From IMG/VR virus record IMGVR_UViG_3300032294_002926: a stretch of 64,000 bases of DNA. One strand, written 5' to 3'. A program made the translations under genes and the position numbers. The stretch comes from a virus. Lineage: Duplodnaviria; Heunggongvirae; Uroviricota; Caudoviricetes. Numbering within the stretch: position 1 is the first letter of the stretch; every line of letters starts with the position of its first letter. The notes under the pieces were generated by a model that saw only the letters and a list, made by a program, of their open reading frames with translations, had not been told where the DNA came from and made no database searches. Shown here in pieces: positions 18,226 through 52,266 of the stretch.

Positions 18226-18394
18226 TGTAAATGAGACACTTTTCATGAGTGTCTCACTCCAAGGCGGCAGACTAGAATCTGCATAAGGGGGGATCCAAAT
18301 CCCCCATGCCTACTTGTCAATTGTCTGACTTTATGTTATGATGATGCTGCAATTAAATACGCTCGCGTAGCCCAGCGGAAGAGGCAGTGGACTT

Positions 18395-19233
18395 ATGAAA
18401 AAAATGAGCCTCATTTGAGAAATCTTATGAGTGTAATTCCTCAAATTCGGTGAAACCTGTAAAATGGCAATACCGAGCCAAGCATCGTAAGATGAAGGTG
18501 TAGAGACTATTTTCTAATAATTAAAACCACATCTAGAATGTAGGAAAGAACAATGACAACTAAACGAGCAAAAAGTCTTTTATTAGCTATGTCCATTGGT
18601 GATGGAACAGTTCGCAAGGATAGTCCAGAACTTCAAATTGGTCATAGTGTAAAACAAAAAGATTATTGTCAGCAAAAAGCAAAACTTCTTGGAGAATGCC
18701 TAGAACGAAACATTAATACTCATCAAAAAACATATGGTGATTATGATTGTGTTCGTTTTAGTGTTTATCATCCATATTTAAAATTTGTTAGAAATTGGTT
18801 GTATAAAAACAATCAAAAAACTCTCACTATTAAAGTTTTGAGAAGGCTAACAGACGAAGCAATTGCTATTTGGTATATGGATAATGGAAGTCTTTATACT
18901 AAAAAAAGAAATGGAATTCCTCACGCATTTGAACTTGTTATTTCAACTTGTTGTTCTACAATAGAAGAAGCACAACCAATTTGTGATTTCTTTTATGAAA
19001 GATATGAAGTTAAAATGAAAATTAAAAAAATGAAAGGAGGATTTTCCATTCGTTGCGGAACACAAAATGCTCGTAAGTTAATTTCTATTTTAGAACCTTA
19101 TTGTATGTCTGGAATGGAATATAAGTTCAAACCAATTTTAGAAAACTAGACGGGGAACACCTAAACCGAAAGGTATGGTGAAGATATAGTCCAGACCACA
19201 AACCGAAAGGGTAGTGAAAACTATAGTGGTATG
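18395..19233 (+). mobile_element. Putative group I intron (839 nt) in the tRNA anticodon loop, carrying a LAGLIDADG homing endonuclease ORF
   Basis: Exon halves flank it precisely; terminal G before exon 2; internal repeated aaaccgaaagg elements. Confidence 0.55.
18553..19149 (+). CDS. LAGLIDADG homing endonuclease (two-motif, single-chain) encoded in the tRNA intron
   Basis: LLLAMSIGDGTV (motif 1) and AIAIWYMDNGSL (motif 2). Confidence 0.7.
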   Translation: MTTKRAKSLLLAMSIGDGTVRKDSPELQIGHSVKQKDYCQQKAKLLGECLERNINTHQKTYGDYDCVRFSVYHPYLKFVRNWLYKNNQKTLTIKVLRRLTDEAIAIWYMDNGSLYTKKRNGIPHAFELVISTCCSTIEEAQPICDFFYERYEVKMKIKKMKGGFSIRCGTQNARKLISILEPYCMSGMEYKFKPILEN

Positions 19234-19305
19234 AAAATCCACCCAGGGTCGGTTCGAATCCGACCGCGAGTATTGAACTGGTAAACATAATAAATAACCT
19301 ATGAT

Positions 19306-20013
19306 GTGTTTACCAGTATGAAATATTCATATAATATAGAAGAATTCAAAAAAGCAGTAGAAGAAAGTTATTCTATTGCTCAGGCACTAACAAAATTAGG
19401 TTTATCTCCTAAAGGTGGAAATTATCGTGTGTTTAAAAAATTTAAAAAACTTTATGAAATAGATACTTCACATTTCACTGGTCAAGGTCATTTAAAAGGA
19501 AAAACTCACAACTTTAATACAATACCATTAAGTGAAATACTTGTTAAAAATTATGAGTATAGTTCTAATAGGTTGAGAAAAAGATTAATTTCTGAAGGAT
19601 TAAAACAACACAAATGTGAATGTTGTAAATTAACTAAATGGTTAGGTGAACTTATACCATTAGAACTAGATCATATCGATGGAGATCATTGTAATAATAC
19701 TTTAGAAAATTTAAAAATATTATGTCCCAATTGTCATGCAAAAACTCCAACATATCGAGGTAAAAATAAAAAGAATAAAAACTCTGAAACTACGTCAACA
19801 AAAAAAGTTTATAATTGCTCTTTCTGTCAAATTGAATTAAAGACAAGATGTAAAACTGGTCTCTGTAAATCCTGTTTTTCGAAATCACAAAGAAAAGTGA
19901 AAAGACCTTCAAAAGAACAATTGATTAAAGAAATTCAAGAAAGTTCTTATCTTACTGTAAGTCGAAAATATGGAGTTAGTGATAATGCCATTCGTAAATG
20001 GATTAATAAATAA
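19306..20013 (+). CDS. HNH homing endonuclease (free-standing) with a C-terminal helix-turn-helix-like tail
   Basis: ELDHIDGDHCNNTLENLKILCPNCHA is a classic HNH with Zn-coordinating Cys pairs. Confidence 0.7.
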   Translation: MFTSMKYSYNIEEFKKAVEESYSIAQALTKLGLSPKGGNYRVFKKFKKLYEIDTSHFTGQGHLKGKTHNFNTIPLSEILVKNYEYSSNRLRKRLISEGLKQHKCECCKLTKWLGELIPLELDHIDGDHCNNTLENLKILCPNCHAKTPTYRGKNKKNKNSETTSTKKVYNCSFCQIELKTRCKTGLCKSCFSKSQRKVKRPSKEQLIKEIQESSYLTVSRKYGVSDNAIRKWINK

Positions 20014-20258
20014 AATAGGTCTAAGTCAACTCAGTCCAATAACTAGTATTAAAACAAAGGTAATAATTTTATAATTAAAACCTATTAATTCTATTTACTT
20101 TTGATAACTCTTTCTTTTAGATCCACTTTTTAAACTGACACAAACTACTTGATTCAGAGTAAGAATGGTGGTATTCTTAGAAAGTTGGTGAGGAATTTGT
20201 CATTTTCCATCACCGCTACTTGATTATCTAAAGTTTATACTTTATGATTTTCAATCAT

Positions 20259-25790: not shown

Positions 25791-25875
25791 GCTGGAGTTA
25801 GCGTAGAGGTCGAACGCACGGCACTTGTAACGCCGCTCCGAAAGGACACCGCAGGTTCAAATCCTGTCTCCAGCT
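25791..25875 (+). tRNA. tRNA with a long variable arm (type II-like); anticodon loop CUUGUAA, so isotype unresolved (UGU/Thr by register, GUA/Tyr if shifted); anticodon stem has an A31-C39 mismatch
   Basis: Perfect 7-bp acceptor gctggag/ctccagc; T-arm gcagg-ttcaaat-cctgt; 15-nt variable region ctccgaaaggacacc; loop identical to T4 tRNA-Thr CUUGUAA. Confidence 0.5.
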
Positions 25876-27711: not shown

Positions 27712-28248
27712 ATGACTATTAATAAAACAATTCTGTTGAACACCGATTCTTACAAGTTTTCGCAATACAATCAATATCCCGAAGGGACTACGAATGTATA
27801 TTCCTATGTAGAAAGTCGTGGAGGTACTTGGAACCAAACTGTTTTCTTCGGACTTCAAATCTTTCTGAAAGAGTATCTGTCTAATCCTATTACTCAGGAT
27901 GATATTGATACCGCAGAACTTATTACTCAAGCACACGGAGAACCTTTCAATCGTGAAGGTTGGGAGTATATTCTTCGTGAACACGGTGGTAAGTTGCCTA
28001 TTCGTATTAAAGCAGTTCCCGAAGGTTCTGTAATTCCTGTAAAGAATGTTCTTGCGACTGTTGAGAACACTGACCCTCAATGTGCCTGGATTACAAGTTA
28101 CATTGAGACTTCACTTCTCAGGAGTATTTGGTATGGAACTACTGTTGCTACCAACTCTTATGAGAGCAAGAGGATTATTCACGATTACTTGGTGAAGACT
28201 GGAGACCCAAGTTTGATTGAGTTCAAACTGCACGATTTCGGTGCTTAA
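27712..28248 (+). CDS. nadV: Nicotinamide phosphoribosyltransferase (NadV/NAMPT), exon 1; reading frame runs into an in-frame stop inside the intron
   Basis: LLNTDSYKFSQY...KLHDFG aligns with the NAMPT N-terminus up to the conserved HDFG(Y/A)RGVSS junction. Confidence 0.8.
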   Translation: MTINKTILLNTDSYKFSQYNQYPEGTTNVYSYVESRGGTWNQTVFFGLQIFLKEYLSNPITQDDIDTAELITQAHGEPFNREGWEYILREHGGKLPIRIKAVPEGSVIPVKNVLATVENTDPQCAWITSYIETSLLRSIWYGTTVATNSYESKRIIHDYLVKTGDPSLIEFKLHDFGA

Positions 28249-29171
28249 TTAACTTCGGGCACCTAACTTTGTGAACTGCTGGAACCCCTAAGTTGCTTAG
28301 GTAATATGGAAATCAGCATCCAAGACTACTATTTTAGTAGTAAGGTTCAGAGACCATCGAAAAGGTTATTTACAAATAACACTTAGTAGAGTACACTCAA
28401 GCGAGTGGAAGCGCAAAGGCGATACTATGTATCGTAAGATATGGTCCAATCTTCATTGAAAAATGAAGCAGTTCATACTCAGCATAAATACTTCCAGACC
28501 AAAATTGTAAAATATTTATGTTGAAACTATTAGAAACTATACCTAGTTTAGAAACATTTAAGGGGTATTCGATTTCAGATGATGGTAGAATCTTTTCACA
28601 TAAGACTAACAAATTTCTGAAAACGAGTATAAGAATGGGAAATGGATGTGCTTATGGAAGAATTGGATTAAACGATTCTAACGGAATCCGTAAAACAATT
28701 TCAATTCATAGACTCGTTTGTTTAGCATTTAAATATAACCCCAACCACAAAAATCTAACTGTGAATCACATAGACGAAAACACTTTTAATAATCATATTG
28801 ATAACTTAGAGTGGATGCCTCTTTCTGAAAACATTAGATATTCTCAGGCAAACAAAAGTTATGTCGGAGACCCAGATAAACTTACATTAGAGTTTAATGA
28901 AGGAAACTACACGGTACAGGAGTTTGCCAAAAAGTATAATACTCCATTAAATACTATGTGGGATATTCTAAACAAATTAGGTTCAGTCAAAAACAACAAA
29001 AAAAGAAGAGTCTTTGGTAAAAAAATACGACTTGAAATTGCTTTAATGAGAAAATCAGGAAAAGCACTAAAAGAAGTATCTGAAAAGTATCAATGTTCTC
29101 AATCTTTTGTTTCTTTAGTTTTTAAAGAGTATGAACGGGGTATGCTTAGCGAACATGCCTGAATAACTCCG
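28246..29171 (+). mobile_element. Putative group I intron (~0.92 kb) splitting nadV, carrying an HNH homing endonuclease ORF
   Basis: The NAMPT alignment breaks after LHDFG(A) and resumes at RGVSSFESAGIGG ~925 nt later. ~270 nt non-coding structured leader; boundaries follow U (5') and G (3'). Confidence 0.55.
28518..29162 (+). CDS. HNH homing endonuclease (HNH_3 / AP2-domain type, I-HmuI-like) inside the nadV intron
   Basis: SIHRLVCLAFKYNPNHKNLTVNHIDENTFNNHIDNLEWMP is the HNH_3 core; C-terminal helix-turn-helix-like basic tail. Confidence 0.7.
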   Translation: MLKLLETIPSLETFKGYSISDDGRIFSHKTNKFLKTSIRMGNGCAYGRIGLNDSNGIRKTISIHRLVCLAFKYNPNHKNLTVNHIDENTFNNHIDNLEWMPLSENIRYSQANKSYVGDPDKLTLEFNEGNYTVQEFAKKYNTPLNTMWDILNKLGSVKNNKKRRVFGKKIRLEIALMRKSGKALKEVSEKYQCSQSFVSLVFKEYERGMLSEHA

Positions 29172-29177
29172 CGAGGA

Positions 29178-30014
29178 GTGTCCTCTTTTGAGTCTGCTGG
29201 TATCGGTGGTCTCGCACACCTTGTAAACTTCAAGGGAACGGATACAGTCACCGCTCTTCTTTACGGTAAAGAATACTACGACATTTATATGGCAGGATTC
29301 TCTATTCCCGCCAGTGAACATAGTACCTGCACCTCTTGGGGTAGGGAAGGTGAAGAAGATTCTTACCGTAATATGGTAAAACTCTACGGCAAACCTGGTT
29401 CTCTATTTGCTTGCGTAAGTGATAGTTATAACATTTACGATGCTTGTCATATGTGGGGCACTGTGTTAAAGGATGATATAATCAACTCTGGTGCAACTCT
29501 TGTAGTTCGCCCAGATAGTGGACATCCACCAGAAGTGGTAATAAATTGCCTTCAACTTTTAGACAAATATTTTGGACACACGATCAATGAGAAAGGATTC
29601 AAAGTTCTTAATTATGTTCGTGTAATTCAGGGTGATGGTATTACTCAAGATACGATTGACCGTATTCTTTATAGAGCAATGACTGCTGGTTATTCTTCAG
29701 ACAACATTGCTTTCGGTCAAGGTGGTAAACTGCTTCAGAGTATTGACCGAGACACTCAAAAGTTTGCTATGAAGTGTTCTTCTATTGAAGTTAACGGAGA
29801 GCAACGCGATGTCTATAAGAGTCCGATTACCGATATGGGTAAAGAATCCAAGAAAGGTCGTGTAACTCTCTATCGTAATGATGAAGGTTACTTCACCGAC
29901 TTGGAAGGTAGGACTGATGCGGTAGAAGTTCTTGAAACTGTATTTGAGAAAGGTGAACTGGTCAAAGAATATACCTTTGATGAGGTTCGTAAAAATGCTT
30001 CGGTGATTATCTAA
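29178..30014 (+). CDS. nadV: Nicotinamide phosphoribosyltransferase (NadV), exon 2 (true exon start ~29172 at Arg-Gly-Val; the tracked ORF starts at an internal GTG)
   Basis: [25 protein letters not shown]... matches the NAMPT C-terminal half through to the end. Confidence 0.8.
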   Translation: [278 protein letters not shown]

Positions 30015-48069: not shown

Positions 48070-48189
48070 CGGGGGGTGGCCTAATTGGAAAAGGCAACAG
48101 TTAAAAATTTATCTAGATTATAGATAATAACAGCAATTAATAAACCACTAAGAAACAGTTTATTGTAGGTTCGAGTCCTACTCCCCCGA
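48070..48189 (+). ncRNA. tRNA-like element (120 nt) with canonical acceptor, D-arm and T-arm but a ~50-nt AT-rich insertion in place of a recognisable anticodon arm
   Basis: cgggggg/tcccccg acceptor; D-arm gcct-aattggaaa-aggc; T-arm gtagg-ttcgagt-cctac; no complementary anticodon stem found. Confidence 0.3.
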
Positions 48190-50292: not shown

Positions 50293-50517
50293 TTCAAATC
50301 TCATGAGTCCGCTGAGTACAAATACGGATTGTCAGGATCTCATGATGGTGTTATGATAAGTACATCGGAAAAAAGGAAAACCTGATTCTGATACTCCCGT
50401 TAACCGAGACCTATGGGGAGTCTAAACACGTCTCTTATCTTGCCTTCTCTTGAGGGTGGAGAAGGAAAATAACGTAAAGAATCTTCCCTAGATTCACTTT
50501 ATTTTCTTTAAATTCTT

Positions 50518-51597
50518 ATGACTGCTACAATTGCTACACGTTCACAAAGTAACGCTTGGGAAGATTTTTGCCAGTGGGTTACTTCAACCAATAATAGGTT
50601 GTACGTTGGGTGGTCGGGAACCATTATGATTCCTTGCCTTCTTGCTGCTACTATTTGCTTTATTCTTGCTTTTATTGCAGCACCTCCCGTTGACATAGAT
50701 GGCATTAGAGAACCTGTTGCTGGGTCTCTTATGTGGGGGAATAACATTATCTCGGGTAATGTTATTCCAAGTTCTAATGCTATCGGACTTCATTTTTATC
50801 CTATCTGGGAAGCACAATCTCTTGAAGAATGGTGTTACAACGGAGGTGAATATCAACTCATCATCTTCCATTTTCTAATTGGTATTTGGATGTATGCTAT
50901 GAGAGAGTGGGAACTTTCTTACCGTCTTGGAATGCGCCCTTGGATTTTTGTTGCATATTCTGCTCCTGCCATTGCAGCAACTGCGGTATTTCTTCTTTAT
51001 CCTATTGGTCAAGGTTCTTTCTCTGATGGTATGCCTCTGGGTATTTCTGGAACCTTTAATTTTATGCTTGTCTTCCAAGCAGAACATAATATCCTTATGC
51101 ACCCCTTCCATCAAATGGGAGTTATCGGTGTTTTCGGTGGTGCTTTTGCTGGAGCAATGCATGGTTCCCTCGTAACCTCTTCAATTGTTCGTGAAACCAC
51201 TGAGACTGAATCTCAGAACTATGGTTACAAGTTCGGACAAGAGGAAGAAACTTATAACATTGTTGCTGCACATGGTTATTTCGGTCGTCTTATTTTCCAA
51301 TATGCGTCCTTCAATAACTCACGTTCACTACATTTCTTCCTTGCTGCACTTCCTGTAATTGGCATTTGGTTTACTTCTCTTGGCATTGCCACTATGAGTT
51401 ATAACCTCAACGGGTTTAACTTCCAACATAGTGTTCAAGATGCACAAGGACGAGTTATTCCTACTTGGGCAGATGTTCTCGGAAGAGCAAATTTGGGTCT
51501 AGAAGTCATCCACGAACGTAACGCACACAATTTTGCATTGGATTTGGCGACAGTATCAACTACAGAAGTAGCACTCATTGCACCTGAAATTGGTTGA
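50518..51597 (+). CDS. psbA: Photosystem II reaction-centre protein D1, full length and uninterrupted
   Basis: 359-aa product with diagnostic D1 motifs ([10 protein letters not shown]..., [26 protein letters not shown], ...ALIAPEIG). Confidence 0.95.
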
Positions 51598-51622
51598 TAA
51601 AATAGTGTAATCTCTTTATATA

Positions 51623-51661
51623 ATCTCTCTTATGGTGTATAATCATAAGAGAGATTTTTTG
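51623..51661 (+). terminator. Rho-independent terminator after psbA
   Basis: 12-bp stem atctctcttatg/cataagagagat followed by T6. Confidence 0.6.
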
Positions 51662-51669
51662 TTTATAAA

Positions 51670-52266
51670 ATGATAACATATATTGCAACAAATACTTTGA
51701 ATGGAAAGTTTTATATTGGAAGCACTTTTAATTTTGAAAGAAGAAAACAAGAACATTTAGAATCAAAAAATAATTATCCATTTCAAAACTCTCTCCGTAA
51801 AAATCCAGATAAGTTTGAATGGGAAACTTACATTGATGAATATGATGAACCAATTTTAGAGCAATCATTATTGGATGTGTGGTGGGGGAAGTCGCAATGT
51901 TATAATATAAATCAATATGCTTCTCGTCCACCAGACCCAACGGGAAGAATTCTTAGTAAAGTGTCAAAAGATAAAATAAGTAAAAAATTAAAGGGTAGAG
52001 TAATAAATGAAAAAACTAGAAAGGCAGTTTCATACTCAAATAAAACTAGACATCTTAATGAAGAAACTTTAAAGATAAAATCTGATGCTATACTTGGAGA
52101 AAAGAACCCATTTTATGGAAAAAAACATAGTGAAGAAACTATTCGTAATTTATCCGAAAAAAGAAAAGGTTTAAAATGGTGGTATAATGAGAAAACTAAA
52201 AAAACTTGTATGTCTAAAGAATTGCCGGGTGAAGGATGGAGACGGGGTAGAAAATACTCATCTTGA
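51670..52266 (+). CDS. GIY-YIG homing endonuclease with NUMOD3-like DNA-binding repeats, immediately downstream of psbA
   Basis: MITYIATNTLNGKFYIGST (GIY-YIG); repeated ..KNPFYGKKHSEETIRNLSEKRKG.. NUMOD3-like units. Confidence 0.65.
   Translation: MITYIATNTLNGKFYIGSTFNFERRKQEHLESKNNYPFQNSLRKNPDKFEWETYIDEYDEPILEQSLLDVWWGKSQCYNINQYASRPPDPTGRILSKVSKDKISKKLKGRVINEKTRKAVSYSNKTRHLNEETLKIKSDAILGEKNPFYGKKHSEETIRNLSEKRKGLKWWYNEKTKKTCMSKELPGEGWRRGRKYSS

Follow-up and report, generated by a model that had tools for sequence, protein, structure and literature searches.

Located at positions 18361–19272 of a 64,000-nucleotide (nt) stretch of viral DNA (IMG/VR record IMGVR_UViG_3300032294_002926; the whole stretch is referred to here as the window) is a transfer RNA gene, tRNA-Leu(UAA), that is interrupted by an 839-nt group I intron. 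Inside the ribozyme core of this intron lies a cassette with a LAGLIDADG homing-endonuclease gene, and 33 nt past the tRNA starts a free-standing HNH endonuclease gene. The best explanation of the locus as a whole, to which we assign a probability of about 0.8, is a working phage tRNA-Leu(UAA) gene with a short variable arm, loaded with these three stacked selfish elements. Its anatomy, homology, covariation and distribution are directly established, as are the association statistics.

The window is of cyanophage origin; it carries psbA (Photo_RC, E 5.6e-85) with a PhotoRC-II motif upstream, and has a G+C content of 32%. No close relative was found among 50,697 phage records, a megablast search of these records with the intron-tRNA locus gave no match, and comparison of 25 kb of the window with them returned as sole match a ribonucleotide-reductase, at ~76% identity, in Synechococcus phages B3 and B23.

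Anatomy of the split tRNA gene and fold of its intron

With introns allowed, ARAGORN calls tRNA-Leu(taa) at 18361–19272 on the forward strand with an 839-nt intron at position 35, in exact agreement with the coordinates of an earlier sequence-only reading, which had described two tRNA halves 839 nt apart forming a cloverleaf. The 5′ exon (18361–18394, tRNA positions 1–34) ends with U34, and the 3′ exon (19234–19272, positions 35–73) contains the variable loop and ends with the discriminator A73. Both ARAGORN and the Rfam alignment place the interruption between U34 and A35, the site of bacterial tRNA-Leu introns, as had been proposed. When spliced by hand, the exons give a 73-nt cloverleaf with anticodon UAA (ARAGORN drawing), composed of a 7-bp acceptor stem starting from G1·U72, a 3-bp D stem, an anticodon arm with stem GUGGA/UCCAC and loop CUUAAAA, a variable loop of 5 nt and a T arm GUCGG-UUCGAAU-CCGAC; CCA is not encoded. 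The 5′ exon is the same as that of the orthologues with introns lacking an open reading frame (ORF) at loci L088 and L055, and the 3′ exon differs from intron-bearing orthologues at one position, a G·U to G-C change in the anticodon stem. Run with its default settings, ARAGORN reports other tRNAs of the window and none at 18361–19272, and the same holds for Rfam at gathering thresholds; split tRNA-Leu genes of this kind escape standard tRNA annotation. Upstream, at 18260–18320, ARAGORN found no tRNA remnant, relaxed thresholds included. We regard the anatomy of the split locus as near certain.

The intron spans 18395–19233 on the same strand, as delimited by Rfam Intron_gpI and by alignment with homologues. 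A permissive Rfam scan matches Intron_gpI (RF00028) at 18385–18555 (41.8 bits, E 4.7e-9), with a second, weaker match over the 3′ part of the intron that includes GAAGAUAUAGUCC. The score stays below the gathering threshold because the 639-nt cassette splits the model. Without the cassette, the window intron shares 98% identity with its ORF-less counterparts at loci L039 and L083, and the ORF-less twin at L039 scores 62.4 bits, past the gathering score.

A group I core within 18395–19233, which the sequence-only reading had proposed as a check on itself, is present, and covariation supports helices P1–P9. For this analysis, 38 distinct ORF-less introns (196–216 nt) were aligned with the cassette-free window intron (n = 39), and a hand-drawn P1–P9 structure including the P7 pseudoknot was scored against controls in which helix partners were slid by 1–3 columns and against 500 shuffles. 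In the proposed structure 96.6% of cells are paired, compared with 28–41% in the slid controls, and none of the 500 shuffles matches any of the observed pairing measures. Compensatory, two-sided changes occur in 28 of the 58 pairs, among them pairs of P3, which spans the cassette, and of the P7 pseudoknot.

P1 (18390–18410) is formed by the exon end GGACUU and the first intron base with the guide UGAGCC (18405–18410; Rfam alignment), and the U34·G wobble at the 5′ splice site (U34 at 18394) is invariant in 39 of 39 sequences. P2 (18411–18430), a GAAA-capped hairpin, has compensatory changes at each of its six pairs. The 5′ strand of P3, UUCCUC (18437–18442), covaries with its 3′ strand GGGGAA (19152–19157), four of six pairs being compensatory and 100% of cells paired. 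Next to it is the P4–P5–P6/P6a domain (18447–18499), in which P4 and P5 are invariant and P6a has compensatory changes. P7 pairs GAGACUA (18503–18509, with a bulged A) with UAGUCC (19187–19192), with one compensatory pair and 100% of cells paired across the 39 sequences; P8 (19158–19180) is a GAAA-capped hairpin with four compensatory pairs, and P9 (19196–19233) is a three-way junction of two GAAA-capped hairpins followed by the terminal G, with all four pairs of P9b compensatory. The terminal base, G19233, is an invariant column of the alignment, and the statement that the intron follows a U and ends with G is thereby borne out on both sides. Other splice junctions within the repeated ATGAAAA, which would yield GAA or UAU anticodons, lose either the P1 U·G or the terminal G and were rejected.

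The Rfam alignment itself assigned the P3 3′ strand to AAUGUAGGAAA (18535–18545), just 5′ of the endonuclease ORF start. This assignment was discarded, as the segment is absent in the 38 ORF-less homologues and P3 covaries with 19152–19157. The ribosome-binding region of the ORF (AGGAAAG, within 18535–18552) is complementary to the UUCCU of the P3 5′ strand, which is why the model mistook the region for P3′; judging by its sequence, this complementarity may compete with P3 or mask the ribosome-binding site.

Guanosine-dependent self-splicing of the window intron is likely. In the transcript, this compact 34/35-type intron would fold into P1–P9 and excise itself via two guanosine-initiated transesterifications. 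Splicing, leucylation and both cleavage specificities of the locus are what we infer from sequence, and they are graded separately below.

An endonuclease cassette in the ribozyme core

A 639-nt cassette (18510–19148, forward strand) separates the 5′ strand of P7 from the 3′ strand of P3; the 38 ORF-less homologues have no such insert at exactly this point. Alignment with ORF-less orthologues, including those at L088 and L055, resolves it as one clean insertion between GUAGAGACUA (P7 5′ strand) and GACGGGGAAC (P3 3′ strand), with ends ambiguous by a 4-nt ACTA repeat. Its site is thus inside the ribozyme core, between core helices and not in a peripheral loop; the sequence-only reading had picked up neither this placement nor the HNH gene. 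At its two ends, UUUUCUAA and UUAGAAAA are able to pair as a terminal inverted repeat of 8–9 bp, which is kept in five of five cassette variants.

Most of the cassette is filled by an uninterrupted, I-SceI-like ORF of 198 residues (18553–19149, forward strand), whose TAG stop codon takes its G from the base that directly follows the cassette. The protein matches Pfam LAGLIDADG_2 (PF03161; 83.8 bits, E 1.8e-23, cut-off 25) and a PHROG of LAGLIDADG homing endonucleases. Both LAGLIDADG motifs noticed in the earlier reading are present, and only the first ends in its acidic residue: motif 1 has GDG at residues 16–18 with the acidic D17, whereas motif 2, IWYMDNGS, has Asn111 (AAT, 18883–18885) at the position of the catalytic Asp. 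In a HMMER alignment with I-SceI, the closest solved structure by sequence (PDB 1R7M, E 6.5e-5), D110-N111-G112 stand opposite D144-D145-G146, and 11 of 12 aligned homologues have Asp at the position of N111. I-SceI has D44 and D145 as its active-site residues, and substitutions there are used for inactivation (PMC3258161). Owing to the replacement of the motif-2 catalytic Asp by Asn111, the enzyme encoded by the window copy is probably inactive or at best a nickase.

Protein searches returned 25 LAGLIDADG homologues, and the DNA surrounding these was read. Four other settings have the cassette at this very core position: a long-arm tRNA-Leu(UAA) with the intron at 34/35 (L092–L099; protein 92% identical to that of the window), two groups of tRNA-Asn(GUU) with the intron at 35/36 (L089, on a 232-kb viral contig, 89%; and L100–L107, 79%) and a tRNA-Arg(UCU) with the intron at 36/37 (L108, 71%). 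Nucleotide identities to the window are 92% for the cassette, 86% for the 5′ part of the intron and 81% for its 3′ part at L092; 88, 76 and 75%, respectively, at L089; 82, 62 and 75% at L100; and 76, 54 and 52% at L108. As the coding block is more conserved than the ribozyme that surrounds it, in different host genes, the best explanation of this pattern is that the cassette by itself was transferred between introns.

The core sequence flanking the cassette is the most conserved part of the intron family, and in ORF-less introns the site reads GAAGGTGTAGAGACTAGACGGGGAAC, a candidate LAGLIDADG target. Because the cassette keeps to a single core site across different tRNAs, with highly conserved flanks, recognition of intron-core DNA by the LAGLIDADG enzyme is plausible, with chances a little short of even. 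The cassette has inserted in the DNA of the catalytic core, and its terminal inverted repeat can loop it out of the RNA; with such recognition it would home to the conserved core of ORF-less introns and not to the tRNA exon junction. More tentatively, the cassette may be a parasite of introns rather than of genes, targeting the P7/P3 junction DNA (GAAGGTGTAGAGACT/GACGG) and jumping between ORF-less group I introns of any tRNA, in phages and possibly in bacteria. It offers a natural test case for endonuclease targeting of ribozyme-core DNA.

The usual behaviour of intron-encoded endonucleases would be different: the LAGLIDADG enzyme would recognise the intronless anticodon region and mobilise the intron in full, and the enzyme's occurrence across several tRNAs would reflect diverged specificities or ectopic transposition. 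Such homing would suit the GGACU...AAUCC that the Leu and Asn host anticodon arms have in common. However, host exons across L092, L089, L100 and L108 are just 46–63% identical to those of the window, compared with 76–92% for the cassettes, which are always above the flanking intron; the insertion sites differ (34/35, 35/36 and 36/37) whereas the core site of the cassette is constant; and the cassette is found in two tRNA-Leu intron variants that differ in P6a. On these grounds we consider movement by exon recognition rather unlikely.

Intron mobility and the linked HNH gene

Scanning viral contigs for exact matches to a 37-nt P4–P6 stretch returned 84 loci, of which ~65 have the match inside a split tRNA gene, nearly always tRNA-Leu(UAA) cut at 34/35; ‘Tyr(ata)’ calls by ARAGORN were rejected as 2-nt boundary misplacements in long-arm tRNA-Leu(UAA) genes. 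The absence of known intron-containing tRNAs in cyanophages, noted in the sequence-only reading, agrees with the searchable literature but has to be set against these ~65 split genes. The closest ORF-less introns (98%) reside in long-arm tRNA-Leu genes with exons ~47% identical to those of the window, whereas the introns of the orthologous short-arm tRNA are less than 93% identical to the window intron. An anticodon arm sequence, GACUUAAAAUC, is common to the window gene and the long-arm phage tRNA-Leu(UAA) genes. Introns of 98% identity within exons of ~47% identity indicate that the intron has been exchanged between different phage tRNA-Leu(UAA) genes. Together, the window locus and its ~65 relatives, which are viral contigs with ORF-less versions of 196–216 nt in tRNA-Leu(UAA) genes, mean that uncultured phages commonly harbour the classic tRNA-Leu(UAA) intron, which moves there between unrelated tRNA-Leu bodies and has two kinds of endonuclease gene in its company.

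A comparison with cyanobacterial tRNA-Leu intron cores had been suggested; extended to bacteria at large, it reveals a common 20-nt core. More than 120 bacterial species have this core sequence, AAGGTGNAGAGACTNGACGG, in tRNA introns, mostly in tRNA-Leu(UAA), and ARAGORN placed 53 of the retrieved bacterial introns in tRNA-Leu(UAA) genes. The window intron combines insertion at 34/35 of a UAA anticodon with sequence kinship to bacterial introns, both of which are features of the tRNA-Leu(UAA) intron lineage (IC3). Its best bacterial match is in a Rhodospirillaceae metagenome-assembled genome (75%), with cyanobacterial introns reaching ~66%, although these global identities are distorted by length differences; the phage intron may or may not be of cyanobacterial origin.

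Among the cultured phages of the collection examined, none has this intron in a tRNA-Leu gene. Related introns are present in the uncultured huge phages LR756501, LR756503 and LR756511; in LR756501, an ORF-less intron of 205 nt interrupts a long-arm tRNA-Leu(UAA) gene. Microcoleus phage My-WqHQDG (OR578706; L002, 1313–1598) has an annotated 286-nt tRNA-Arg(CCU) with a 213-nt intron at 36/37; the 3′ part of that intron is like the window intron, and directly upstream of the tRNA-Arg is a PD-(D/E)XK nuclease gene. The P4–P6 core (75–91% identity) is also found in introns of phage protein genes, including the capsid gene of Pelagibacter phage HTVC120P, the terminase gene of a Klebsiella phage and locus L018 (KT997847), and the intron lineage is therefore not restricted to tRNAs.

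Directly downstream of the tRNA is the free-standing HNH gene (19306–20013, forward strand), which has a GTG start, with an ATG at 19318. Its product matches PHROG 10822 ‘HNH endonuclease’ (E 9.8e-54) and, weakly, Pfam HNH_3 (18.7 bits, cut-off 24.8), and the motif DHIDGDHCNN...N...CPNCH is visible in the translation. By tblastn of the fetched loci, HNH homologues (45–80% identity) lie directly 3′ of 21 of the 58 intron-bearing tRNA-Leu(UAA) loci with enough downstream sequence, starting 67–110 nt after the 3′ splice site and next to both short-arm and long-arm tRNA bodies. Set against 88 intronless short-arm loci with at least 900 nt of downstream sequence, only two intronless loci are followed by a homologue, one of these having just 677 nt downstream, and the association of HNH gene and intron is significant (Fisher p 3.6e-8). 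Homology between the window and the HNH-bearing loci is limited to 18329–20015 and ends at the HNH stop codon. At three loci, L053 (10461–11243), L215 and L222, HNH-like sequence lies inside a long tRNA-Leu(UAA) intron (695, 847 and 687 nt, respectively), in agreement with the HNH genes reported in Bacteroidota tRNA-Leu introns (PMC13011429); these loci may represent an ‘endonuclease moved into intron’ stage of the same pathway.

The layout is the one described for collaborative homing, which the HNH gene is likely to drive for the intron. The HNH enzyme would cleave the intronless tRNA-Leu alleles of phages infecting the same cell, and during repair the intron would be copied along with the HNH gene. 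It is unlikely that the gene is a mere neighbour, that is, a free-standing endonuclease gene inserting beside tRNA genes and functionally unconnected with the intron. Such a history would account for the 37 of the 58 intron-bearing loci that lack it and for the free-standing endonuclease genes scattered in the window, for example the GIY-YIG gene beside psbA; it fits poorly with the ~24-fold enrichment at intron-bearing over intronless alleles, the constant spacing from two different tRNA bodies, the inter-locus homology that stops exactly at the HNH stop codon and the homologues within the intron at three loci.

Elsewhere in the window, at 50381–52266, the PhotoRC-II motif is followed by psbA (50518–51597) and a free-standing GIY-YIG/NUMOD3 endonuclease gene (51670–52266). 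A second group I intron (28184–28468; Rfam 61.3 bits) interrupts a nicotinamide phosphoribosyltransferase gene, with NAMPT_N upstream, NAPRTase downstream and then a NUMOD4/HNH_3 endonuclease-like ORF; the ORFs around this intron are at 27712–28248, 28518–29162 and 29178–30014. In a tRNA-like gene at 48070–48189 (Rfam tRNA, 39.7 bits), 53 nt replace the 7-nt anticodon loop, an insertion too short for a group I intron.

Probable function of the spliced tRNA and comparison with known systems

A UAA anticodon on a body with a short variable region, as the sequence-only reading had described it, holds for the window tRNA, whose 5-nt variable loop departs from the long variable arm (class II shape) of bacterial-type tRNA-Leu. 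By blastn, the spliced tRNA has an intronless copy, 88% identical, in the freshwater Synechococcus phage S-SRM01, where it is given as Leu TAA of 73 nt (PMC8557907); other matches are 73–74-nt genes annotated as tRNA-Leu in S-CREM1 and in Streptomyces, Pseudomonas, Lactobacillus and Rhodococcus phages. A pattern scan for the intronless form collected 107 viral-contig stretches with 46 distinct 73-nt sequences at 106 sites. In the family made up of these 46 and the window sequence, the acceptor, anticodon and T stems are 98–100% paired with many compensatory changes, A73 is found in 47 of 47 distinct sequences, and the G1·U72 wobble in 44 of 47 (L229–L335 and, in the window, 18361/19271). The same wobble is seen in the long-arm phage tRNA-Leu genes L001 and L020. 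Judged by this conservation, the short-arm tRNA-Leu(UAA) is a selected, functional family of phage tRNAs, and the window tRNA, as a member of a recurrent family, is no oddity. The family stands as an exception to the textbook class II rule. The converse is seen in the tRNA-Thr(UGU) of the window (25792–25874), in which an inserted hairpin-like variable arm, uccgaaaggacA, gives a class-II-like shape.

The D-loop elements of tRNA-Leu, A14 and G18G19 along with the 3-bp D stem, are present in the sequence and in the ARAGORN drawing, with G15 and G48 in place of the A15–U48 pair of Escherichia coli tRNA-Leu, and the D arm (GCC-CAGCGGAAGA-GGC) is like that of long-arm phage tRNA-Leu(UAA) genes with the same intron. 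E. coli leucyl-tRNA synthetase (LeuRS) needs A73 and tertiary contacts of the D and T loops, and neither the anticodon nor the long arm; tRNA-Leu variants without the variable arm are still active with it, and human mitochondrial tRNA-Leu(UUR) is armless (PMC9976931). The isotype, which had been called ambiguous, can be regarded as largely settled as Leu from the phage family, A73 and the 3-bp D stem, and leucine is the likely identity of the spliced tRNA. The suggestion of a suppressor-like species is wrong, as the anticodon 5′-UAA-3′ pairs with UUA and UUG and with no stop codon.

Joining of U34 to A35 would produce a 73-nt tRNA reading UUA/UUG, which account for half of all Leu codons in a phage of 32% GC; across 45 long window ORFs, UUA makes up 31.6% and UUG 18.0% of Leu codons (together 49.6%). 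Splicing and leucine decoding by the window tRNA are, in our view, likely. One role of the short arm may be to provide a tRNA-Leu substitute that escapes host nucleases cutting tRNA variable arms; one such defence, Septu, is reported to act on tRNA-Tyr (PMC13096335).

Several points weigh against a working tRNA gene with three selfish elements. The stem that would close off the cassette is weak and A/U-rich (−6.5 kcal/mol, ~2 standard deviations better than shuffles), it overlaps coding sequence, and its conservation may be protein-driven. ORFs are not usually placed between P7 and P3′, and a 639-nt insert there might slow folding or prevent it. The intron, at 41.8 bits, falls under the Rfam gathering score of 50 bits. 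The short arm breaks the rule that tRNA-Leu outside animal mitochondria has a long variable arm (PMC9976931). The HNH association was counted on metagenomic contigs that are related to one another and are not independent events, and most intron-bearing loci are without the gene. When compared by eye, the exon junction and the cassette flanks showed no convincing similarity; for a resemblance of the type described by Loizos et al., only GACU and a few A residues match, and we make no claim from it.

Were the window copy a dead relic, the core cassette would block folding, and there would be neither splicing nor a functional tRNA-Leu(UAA) from it. The placement of the ORF between two core helices instead of in a peripheral loop, the weak closing stem, the sub-threshold Rfam score and the lost catalytic residue, which suggests an element already decaying, would all be expected of such a copy. 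All core helices are nevertheless intact and the cassette-free intron matches ORF-less introns almost exactly (98%); the 5′ exon is unchanged and the lone change in the 3′ exon turns G·U into G-C; the ORF is uninterrupted; introns with the cassette are retained across four tRNA contexts and numerous samples (P0001, 22 contigs; P0006, 25); and the phage makes heavy use of UUA and UUG. We therefore hold a dead relic to be improbable.

Equally improbable is a spliced RNA that accepts another amino acid or has a non-decoding role, as a decoy or a nuclease-resistant substitute, despite the missing long variable arm (per reviews universal for tRNA-Leu outside animal mitochondria), the unusual conserved G1·U72 and the G15/G48 that replace A15–U48, a pair that matters for the tRNA-Leu of E. 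coli. The anticodon-indifferent synthetases are those for Ala, Ser and Leu, and among these choices the window tRNA is without G3·U70 and without a long arm. Further pointing to leucine are the invariant A73, the Leu-like D stem with A14 and G18G19, the charging of armless variants by E. coli LeuRS, the armless human mitochondrial counterpart, and the occurrence of the same intron family in short-arm and long-arm phage tRNA-Leu(UAA) genes.

The tRNA-Leu(UAA) intron has long been debated, as ancient and vertically inherited or as mobile. For its lateral spread, the phage introns offer a concrete, testable vector; if the core-targeting cassette and the linked HNH gene act as proposed, phage tRNA-Leu(UAA) introns would be a vehicle for horizontal spread of this ‘ancient’ intron. 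A group I intron at 34/35 of tRNA-Leu(UAA) is of a known kind, 34/35 being the insertion site of bacterial tRNA-Leu introns (PMC13011429). The window intron is like these in its host anticodon, in its site, in the P1 logic of GGACUU with a UGAGCC-type guide and in the core AAGGUGNAGAGACUNGACGG. It differs in sitting in a phage genome, in a tRNA without the long variable arm, in its length of 200 nt without the ORF (202–336 nt in those retrieved), in being at most 75% identical to any retrieved and in carrying an endonuclease gene.

In a survey of 333 bacterial tRNA introns, 12 had endonuclease genes; LAGLIDADG genes occurred solely in tRNA-Arg(CCU) introns and in no tRNA-Leu intron (PMC13011429). 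The LAGLIDADG genes of cyanobacterial tRNA-Arg(CCU) introns (36/37) belong to the same PF03161 family and likewise lie inside a tRNA group I intron, whereas that of the window is in another tRNA, at another site and in a phage, within a cassette common to Leu, Asn and Arg introns. I-SceI, from an intron of the yeast mitochondrial 21S rRNA, is also a single chain with two motifs, but only the C-terminal 120 residues align, and the window copy has Asn at the position of Asp145. As with I-TevII in the sunY intron of T4 (Loizos et al., 1994, via PMC3984707), the endonuclease gene appears to have invaded an intron that already existed without an ORF, by cleavage of the DNA of that intron; in the window, the proposed target is a conserved catalytic core common to many introns, which would allow spread between genes, and no similarity of the cassette flanks to the exon junction was found.

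Models of collaborative (trans) homing and of endonuclease-gene invasion have been described, as has T4 mobE with its defunct I-TevIII (PMC3984707), and an ORF-less psbA intron with free-standing F-CphI in cyanophages is presented as a case of collaborative homing (PMC2790892). In common with these, the window has a free-standing endonuclease gene beside the intron gene and associated with the presence of the intron, and, as for mobE/I-TevIII, the intron endonuclease appears impaired. Here the host gene is a tRNA and not protein-coding, and a second, unrelated endonuclease gene lies in the intron.

A 2014 review placed all phage introns found so far in protein-coding genes, despite the many phage tRNA genes (PMC3984707). 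Full-text literature yielded no paper on group I introns in phage tRNA-Leu genes, subscription-only papers not being covered. Compared with the searchable literature, four features appear to be new: a phage host for the 34/35 tRNA-Leu(UAA) intron, a LAGLIDADG gene in a tRNA-Leu intron, a gene at the P7/P3 junction in a cassette common to introns of several tRNAs, and an intron-bearing tRNA linked to a free-standing HNH gene. An earlier case in phage tRNA genes is the set of Lak megaphage introns, reported as the first in phage tRNAs and as ‘enigmatic’ (Devoto et al., 2018). Those introns have no group I assignment, whereas that of the window is clearly a group I ribozyme, with endonuclease genes both in it and beside it.

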